From a virus (Duplodnaviria; Heunggongvirae; Uroviricota; Caudoviricetes), in the IMG/VR virus record IMGVR_UViG_2547132273_000004, positions 1 to 16,314 of that record: a stretch of 16,314 nucleotides of DNA; one strand, 5' to 3'. The notes beneath the pieces were generated by a model. It ran no database searches. It was not told where the DNA came from and was given only the letters and a program-made list of their open reading frames with translations. Shown here piece after piece: positions 5,159 through 5,811 of this stretch. Every line of letters starts with the position of its first letter. Position 1 is the first letter of the stretch. Made by a program: the position numbers and the translations under genes.

Positions 5159-5811
5159 ATCGAACTAGCTGGCGCATCATTAAAAATAGTGAAGAGCATG
5201 CTGCAGCTATGGAAAGGCTCATTGAACTTGCGTCTAGTGATTTACAACCTGGAACTGAAGATTTTGATGAGTTTGAACTACTAGGCTTGCTTATCGAGCA
5301 CTATGAGTCACGCGAGTTCCCTATGGACAAGCCAGATCCCATAGAAGCAATCAAGTTCCGTATGGATCAACAAGGCCTCTCTTATGCCGATATGAAACAA
5401 TACATTGGCTCAGCATCTAAAGTATCTGAGGTCTTAAATCGTAAGCGTCCATTAAGTCTTTCAATGATCCGTAGACTACATGACGGACTTGGAATTCCTG
5501 CAGATATCTTAATTCAAGATATGAGCGCAATTGAATGGATCCTAGTTGACGCAGAGGAAGAAGAAACAGCCATGACTAGCGTCATTGCTCGGTGTGAGTC
5601 AGCCGTCACATCACCTTCTGCTTATTTCGCTGAAAAGGCTACAGAATCTTACTTTTCAAAAATGTTGTTCAGCGCAGTAAGGGGTAATGGCAAATGCAAA
5701 GAAAAACGGAATGTTTTTTCTTTGATAAGTAACTTGTCATCAAGTTTCACAGCGGCTAGCAACCTGAATGACGAAATGACTTCTGACGGAAATTACTTAT
5801 TATTACCATGA
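5155..5811 (+). CDS. HigA-like HTH antitoxin with about 85-aa C-terminal extension (candidate chaperone-addiction domain)
   Basis: 218 aa; residues 1-about 130 align with remembered E. coli HigA (MDQQGLSYADMKQYIGSASKVSEVLNRKRPLSLSMIRRLHDGLGIPADILI versus LMDQYGLTLSDLPEIGSKSMVSRVLSGKRKLTLEHAKKLATRFGISPALFI); the C-terminal about 85 aa has no HigA counterpart; ATGA overlaps at both ends. Confidence 0.7.
   Translation: MNRTSWRIIKNSEEHAAAMERLIELASSDLQPGTEDFDEFELLGLLIEHYESREFPMDKPDPIEAIKFRMDQQGLSYADMKQYIGSASKVSEVLNRKRPLSLSMIRRLHDGLGIPADILIQDMSAIEWILVDAEEEETAMTSVIARCESAVTSPSAYFAEKATESYFSKMLFSAVRGNGKCKEKRNVFSLISNLSSSFTAASNLNDEMTSDGNYLLLP

Follow-up and report, generated by a model that had tools for sequence, protein, structure and literature searches.

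The question raised by this locus is what the long C-terminal extension of its HigA-like antitoxin does, and whether it ties the antitoxin to the product of the gene that follows. The earlier note on this DNA, made from the sequence, had suggested that the extension is a chaperone addiction domain (ChAD), a concept defined in Mycobacterium tuberculosis for its toxin-antitoxin-chaperone (TAC) system, which comprises HigB1 (Rv1955), HigA1 (Rv1956) and the chaperone SecB-TA (Rv1957) (Bordes 2016 PMC5105189; Guillet 2019 PMC6377645). We analysed the locus within the window, by which we mean the whole stretch of 16,314 nucleotides, together with its relatives in other genomes. Residues 122-218 of HigA very probably form the ChAD of a prophage-borne HigBAC toxin-antitoxin-chaperone defence system, in which HigC would hold the disordered, anchored tail until a phage tail protein titrates HigC.

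The higBAC operon and its prophage setting

The operon lies between the cI and N genes of a Stx-type lambdoid prophage (Table 1). The variable 'rexAB slot' is bordered upstream by the gene of the cI-type repressor and downstream by the gene of antiterminator N. The gene order is identical to that of phage BP-4795, where the three genes are annotated merely as hypothetical ORF22, ORF21 and ORF20; given this order and the position between cI and N, the module sits in the slot that holds rexAB in lambda. ATGA overlaps are present at both junctions, joining the higB stop to the higA start and the higA stop to the higC start. In the terminator-like element that follows higC, the hairpin proper covers 6221-6240 and the T-run reaches about 6250.

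Table 1. Features of the higBAC locus, in positions of the window
Feature	Position	Strand	Basis
cI-type repressor (HTH and S24 peptidase)	4030..4734	+	Pfam Peptidase_S24, E 3.8e-16; cI annotation in BP-4795
higB, RelE-family toxin, 95 aa	4871..5158	+	Pfam HigB_toxin PF09907, E 4.5e-30; PADLOC PD-Lambda-2_A, E 2.5e-42
higA, 218 aa	5155..5811	+	Stop codon 5809-5811
HigA core, residues 1-121, N-terminal helices and HTH domain	5155..5517	+	Sequence match to 5ifg_B and 5ycl_A; Foldseek match to 6kml_B; pLDDT about 90; dN/dS 0.025-0.03
Probable chaperone addiction (ChAD) tail, HigA residues 122-218, 97 aa	5518..5808	+	No family match; pLDDT <50 at 134-218; absent from 120-135-aa relatives; boundaries as in the published NT1F31 ChAD
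W128 codon, first aromatic anchor	5536..5538	+	W in 40/40 homologues
F158 codon, second aromatic anchor	5626..5628	+	Aromatic in 30/40 homologues
F188 codon, third aromatic anchor	5716..5718	+	Aromatic in 26/40 and hydrophobic in 32/40 homologues
Y214 codon, fourth aromatic anchor, four residues before the C-terminal Leu-Pro	5794..5796	+	Aromatic in 37/40 homologues
higC, predicted SecB-like TAC chaperone, 134 aa	5808..6212	+	Predicted fold; Pfam SecB matches of relatives; PADLOC
Terminator-like stem-loop and T-run, directly 3' of higC	6221..6250	+	Consensus scan: stem of 7 bp, 6 of them G-C, then TTTCTTT
Antiterminator N	6618..7067	+	Pfam N_peptide, E 2.8e-15; N annotation in BP-4795

Across the 1.5 kb that we queried, the window was 100% identical to an E. 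coli chromosome and matched many Stx-converting lambdoid phages at 99.9% identity, among them BP-4795, ST2-8624 and a large number of Stx1a and Stx2a phages. The full locus is present in 88 of 5426 complete E. coli genomes and in 30 phage records. The HigA allele of the window is identical to WP_001082380.1 from Escherichia sp. TW15838, for which the NCBI annotation is just 'helix-turn-helix domain-containing protein', and an NCBIfam scan of the HigB, HigA and HigC proteins gave nothing useful. In RefSeq and phage records the genes still go under 'helix-turn-helix domain-containing protein' and 'hypothetical protein'. The correct annotation is a HigBAC defence module of widespread Stx-converting prophages, and for this window the value of the analysis lies in that annotation.

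A HigBAC system has been studied experimentally in E. coli NT1F31 (HigB WP_112844290.1, HigA WP_112844289.1, HigC WP_112844288.1), where it lies in a lambdoid prophage downstream of cI, at the RexAB locus (Mets et al. 2024, bioRxiv 10.1101/2024.02.24.581848). In that system the ChAD was assigned to HigA residues 122-218 with the anchors W128, F158, F188 and Y214 and a Leu-Pro end, and Y39, N41, R49 and D71 were identified as pocket residues of HigC (bioRxiv 10.1101/2024.02.24.581848). The window shares with it the setting in a lambdoid prophage, the order HigB-HigA (218 aa)-HigC that follows cI, the Leu-Pro end and all 8 of these published residue positions, four in the HigA tail and, as Y39, N41, R49 and D71, four in HigC. 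The operon thus appears to be essentially the NT1F31 HigBAC, a match read from residue numbers, protein length and C-terminus. Since the features agree with a system for which experiments are published, the interpretation given in the earlier note is supported and the feature is already known, having been published in 2024 with experimental data for essentially this operon.

The C-terminal tail of HigA

We determined where the antitoxin fold ends by sequence and by predicted structure. A sequence search aligned HigA residues 53-119 to residues 71-135 of the 138 residues of E. coli HigA (5ifg_B; E 7e-5), and sequence alignment of the 218-aa protein to E. coli and Shigella HigA was limited to these residues. 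An AlphaFold model based on an alignment of 40 homologues was confident for residues 1 to about 125. The best PDB matches of this model were E. coli K-12 HigA chains; Foldseek aligned it to K-12 HigA in the HigBA complex (6kml_B) over about 121 columns with 30% identity, and all Foldseek matches were confined to the core. Pfam and NCBIfam scans identified no family covering the tail, and the tail had no counterpart in HigA. Because the HigA match ends at about residue 121 and what follows is without a HigA, Pfam or NCBIfam counterpart, the extension is real. It was initially described as about 85 aa long and starting at 5545, which is residue 131; the tail is actually 97 aa long (residues 122-218, nucleotides 5518-5808), and the former start is 9 residues late and omits W128. 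As an extension beyond the antitoxin fold that is absent from two-component homologues, the tail has the placement of a ChAD.

Residues 134-218 had a pLDDT <50 and no secondary structure in the model, and the extension is thus predicted to be unstructured on its own, as is expected of a ChAD. The tail does not correspond to any known domain; folding as one is what the earlier note had named as contradicting its reading. The composition proposed there was right in part. The tail is indeed rich in serine, at 15.5%, and acidic, with a net charge of -6 and EEEE at residues 134-137, but it is not low-complexity, with a Shannon entropy of 3.90 bits compared to 4.00 bits for the core. The impression that the tail is unusually long also stood, as it has more than twice the length of the ChAD of M. 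tuberculosis HigA1 (bioRxiv 10.1101/2024.02.24.581848).

The tail has diverged much faster than the core, with dN/dS values of 0.23-0.67 versus 0.025-0.03 and a mean column identity of 0.35 versus 0.79. Despite the low overall conservation of the tail, its four aromatic anchors, spaced about 30 residues apart, are kept. In the NT1F31 system these four aromatic residues mediate both the binding of HigC and the instability of HigA, and HigA versions with triple and quadruple anchor mutations no longer need HigC; a ChAD peptide binds HigC with a Kd of 1.3 uM and the W128A exchange abolishes binding (bioRxiv 10.1101/2024.02.24.581848). The stretch around F188, FSLISNLSS, is locally hydrophobic, and F188 has been placed within an aggregation-prone patch (Mets et al. 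2024, bioRxiv 10.1101/2024.02.24.581848).

The window allele carries one unusual residue next to an anchor. Codon 129 (5539-5541), directly after W128, encodes isoleucine in the window, whereas all 11 other full-length members of its protein cluster that we compared have serine at this position. S129I is the only difference between the window HigA and the allele found on more than 1000 contigs, and we saw it in the window allele only. According to Mets et al. (2024, bioRxiv 10.1101/2024.02.24.581848), a residue with a small side chain usually comes next after an anchor.

HigC and its co-occurrence with the tail

The gene downstream of higA lies in the same operon and overlaps the higA stop, and its product is predicted to be SecB-like, which is the arrangement of a TAC system. 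The AlphaFold model of HigC (20-sequence alignment, pLDDT 87) consists of four beta strands and a long helix. Its top Foldseek match was 5mtw, the structure of M. tuberculosis Rv1957 with a ChAD peptide (TM 0.73-0.75), followed by the SecB proteins of E. coli and Haemophilus influenzae, and comparison of the predicted fold with 5mtw, 1qyn and 1fx3 gave TM values of 0.70-0.77. HigC and Rv1957 share 16-17% identity. HigC also matched the PADLOC profile PD-T4-9_C, which represents the CmdTAC chaperone CmdC (E 3.2e-11), and 4 of 20 HigC relatives that were scanned individually matched Pfam SecB (best E 2e-4). HigC itself had no significant match in Pfam or among PDB sequences, and PDB searches with the single sequence or a 20-sequence profile found no SecB; its assignment as a SecB-like protein rests on the predicted fold and on the relatives.

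Other identities for HigC were rejected. A housekeeping SecB should be full-length, pass the Pfam PF02556 threshold and be encoded in a yibN-grxC-secB-gpsA context; HigC has 134 aa, has no PF02556 match of its own and is encoded in the immunity region of a prophage, with cI and N on either side. Mets et al. (2024, bioRxiv 10.1101/2024.02.24.581848) likewise distinguish such prophage loci from the housekeeping secB operon. Pfam PF18167 (Sa_NUDIX, 'SMODS-associated NUDIX domain') was matched by 8 of 20 HigC-family proteins (best E 5.5e-6), more than matched SecB, and one database entry names a HigC relative after the NUDIX domain. We dropped a NUDIX reading of HigC because its predicted fold matches SecB structures only. 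The PF18167 family may be misnamed, or it may include SecB-like proteins.

We then asked whether the tail co-occurs with a SecB-like gene. HigA homologues fall into three length classes, namely proteins of about 120-135 aa without a tail, which end 0-29 residues past the end of the core, proteins of about 190-250 aa with a tail, and proteins of about 400 aa in which the core is joined to a Peptidase_M78 domain. We searched the loci of 87 relatives with a core-only HMM and scored the 78 that had enough downstream sequence, defining a tail as 30-150 aa beyond the core and counting a SecB-like ORF if it was directly downstream. A narrow HigC HMM matched nothing in 80 genome loci, and a broader HMM built from the hits of an exhaustive search was used. 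A SecB-like gene was directly downstream of higA in 8 of the 9 tailed loci and in none of the 69 loci with tail-less or M78-fused forms (Fisher p = 4e-10; the 9 include two duplicate pairs). Extension and chaperone are thus inherited together, as in TAC systems. Six further enterobacterial loci encode HigB, a tailed HigA and an ORF of 131-138 aa, usually beside a cI-like repressor, and this arrangement is present in prophages of Klebsiella, Citrobacter, Pectobacterium, Salmonella and Serratia. These enterobacterial long forms were fetched from the contigs encoding homologues, as a profile scan of genome contigs gave no close ones.

Two loci depart from the general pattern. The single exception among the tailed forms is Gilliamella intestini (locus L001, 3573-3995), where a HigA of 191 aa is followed by an ORF of 140 aa that was matched by no SecB profile; this ORF could encode a very divergent chaperone or a different partner. 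In Serratia symbiotica (locus L081, 2291-3164), the same cI-adjacent slot encodes a HigA of 128 aa that ends in ...ILIQDIK at the junction of core and tail, preceded by an ORF of just 62 aa in the position of HigB and with no HigC after HigA. This locus resembles a remnant of the module that lacks the tail or has decayed.

The relatives of about 400 aa come from several phyla and have a Peptidase_M78 (ImmA/IrrE) domain in place of the ChAD (L007, 3007-4212; L025, 2983-4188; and about 30 other loci). They match the PADLOC profile PD-Lambda-2_B, and residues 5-127 of the window HigA match positions 3-125 of this 402-position profile. Either an M78 domain or a ChAD can thus follow one core, which argues that the same toxin and antitoxin core have been combined with alternative C-terminal control modules. 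The HigB family and the HigA core are common to the window, PD-Lambda-2 and the HigBA system of K-12 (5ifg/6kml). K-12-type HigA ends after the HTH domain and PD-Lambda-2_B-type relatives continue after the core with the M78 domain of about 280 aa; both types lack a ChAD tail and a SecB-like neighbour (0 of 69 loci).

Among TAC systems, the window resembles that of M. tuberculosis in having a three-gene operon and an antitoxin with a C-terminal extension, which in M. tuberculosis is recognised by the SecB-like chaperone via aromatic residues (W108 and Y114); Rv1957 (5mtw) is also the closest structure to the predicted fold of HigC. The tail analysed here differs from the ChAD of HigA1 in its more than twofold length and in having four spaced anchors instead of one compact motif (per Mets et al. 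2024), and it ends in Leu-Pro instead of the ClpXP-type Val-Ala, with inactivation reported to be independent of ClpXP. HigB of the window belongs to Pfam PF09907, another difference from the M. tuberculosis system. The phage defence system CmdTAC (PD-T4-9; Vassallo 2022 PMC9519451; PMC11618068) shares the logic of a ChAD-bearing antitoxin and a SecB-like chaperone, but has an unrelated toxin-antitoxin pair, in which CmdT is an mRNA ADP-ribosyltransferase and the tail of CmdA ends in Ala-Ala and is degraded by ClpXP.

A model for HigBAC, its alternatives and gpV

The predicted SecB fold of the third ORF, the predicted disorder of the tail, the co-occurrence of tail and chaperone and the conservation of the anchors support the reading of the tail as a chaperone addiction domain. 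Chaperone dependence, the function of the anchors, triggering by gpV and the activity of the toxin are taken from the experiments on the near-identical NT1F31 system. There, HigBA is toxic without HigC, and deletion of HigA 122-218 makes HigA independent of the chaperone, so that the outcome of the truncation proposed in the earlier note is already published for an essentially identical operon; the major tail protein gpV of lambda, which is recognised while it is being translated, competes for HigC with the ChAD peptide and triggers HigB, and the S54P variant of gpV escapes (bioRxiv 10.1101/2024.02.24.581848). By analogy, the disordered tail with W128, F158, F188 and Y214 would destabilise HigA when unbound, and unstable HigA would fail to neutralise HigB, a translation-inhibiting RelE-family toxin. 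A tetramer of HigC, encoded immediately downstream and probably translationally coupled, would bind the anchors in its client-binding grooves, keeping HigA stable and the lysogen unharmed. Upon infection by a lambda-like siphovirus, nascent gpV would compete with the tail for HigC; with HigC drawn off, HigA would be lost and HigB freed, and the infection would be aborted. The disordered tail would thus be a molecular switch: the chaperone would keep the antitoxin stable up to the point at which a structural protein of a phage competes with the tail for it.

How the unbound tail inactivates HigA could be explained differently. It is possible, albeit doubtful in our view, that the tail is mainly a protease degron that is merely shielded by HigC, with no aggregation or folding defect, unlike in the M. 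tuberculosis ChAD model of an aggregation-prone antitoxin. HigA is undetectable without HigC and forms no visible aggregates, ChAD-tagged mNeonGreen is dim but evenly distributed without foci (bioRxiv 10.1101/2024.02.24.581848), and the predicted disorder of the tail is typical for degrons. However, the loss of HigA does not depend on ClpXP, Lon or HslVU, HigBA is still toxic in clpP, clpX, lon and clpPX lon hslVU mutants (bioRxiv 10.1101/2024.02.24.581848), no protease has been identified, and the tail ends in Leu-Pro and not in a ClpX-type Ala-Ala or Val-Ala. A degron function refines the main explanation rather than replacing it. The earlier note had offered phage sensing or regulated degradation as alternatives to a ChAD; these are not really alternatives to it, and both are partly right. 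The tail appears to act as a degron-like destabiliser and as the ligand that gpV displaces from HigC, but the published NT1F31 data identify HigC, and not the tail, as the sensor.

There is little support for two further readings, a tail that senses phage by itself and a tail that is a folded domain or arose as an ORF artefact. A tail that binds a phage protein directly and independently of HigC would be expected to evolve as fast as this one does (dN/dS 0.23-0.67 compared to 0.03 for the core), like a surface under conflict; yet according to published pull-down, ITC, HDX-MS and competition experiments gpV binds to HigC, in the pockets that also take up the tail (bioRxiv 10.1101/2024.02.24.581848), and the strict co-occurrence of tail and chaperone fits a tail-chaperone pair, making direct sensing by the tail very improbable. 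It is hardly credible that the tail folds by itself as a domain of some unknown family, or that a read-through or frameshift has fused HigA to non-coding sequence. Such a view could invoke the lack of an assigned family and the generic NCBI name, but the model showed no structure in the tail despite an alignment of 40 sequences, and structural matches cover the core only. Moreover, an HigA of identical length, 218 aa, is found on more than 1000 contigs, the 190-230-aa homologues in Klebsiella, Salmonella, Serratia, Citrobacter, Yersinia and Pectobacterium preserve the frame, the length class and the four anchor positions, and dN/dS in the tail is below 1, all of which argues against an ORF artefact; PHROG 11202 also spans HigA end to end, from residue 1 to 218. 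Chaperone addiction by a tail that HigC holds is very probably the explanation.

We also looked for natural variants of gpV in related phages, using a query with 100% identity to the protein annotated as tail tube protein V in lambda imm434. S54P is the exchange in gpV that lets lambda-vir escape HigBAC in selection (Mets et al. 2024, bioRxiv 10.1101/2024.02.24.581848). Proline is the natural residue 54 in the Stx1 phages Stx1_111698 (L092, 34999-35733) and CP-1639 (L093, 33354-34106) and in PhiR12_4 (L095). Elsewhere this position is serine (lambda, mEp043, mEp237 and PhiR47_2) or alanine (PhiR40_1). The homologues with Pro54 retain W36, DDED61-64 and W67.

The fast-evolving tail and HigC might form a tunable recognition pair, in which the ease with which HigC is drawn away, and the phage proteins that can do so, depend on the tail variant; S129I would be one such variant and the natural Pro54 alleles of gpV would be field counterparts of S54P. 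We consider this idea speculative and rather unlikely to hold as a whole. If true, it would point to an ongoing arms race among the lambdoid prophages of pathogenic E. coli. The Pro54 alleles, the absence of gpV from the two carriers checked (see below) and the alternative C-terminal modules could help to ask how HigBAC shapes the competition between Stx phages.

Lambda-type gpV was absent from the HigBAC carriers Stx1_JNE122398 (L091) and BP-4795 (L094) in tblastn searches with E values up to 1e-3, and HigBAC was not found in Stx1_111698 and CP-1639, the two gpV-carrying phages checked. This mutual absence, seen in the four genomes examined, may reflect the avoidance of self-triggering. Stx1_JNE122398 and BP-4795 share a different major tail subunit of 281 aa (ORF64 of BP-4795, locus 28188-29033).
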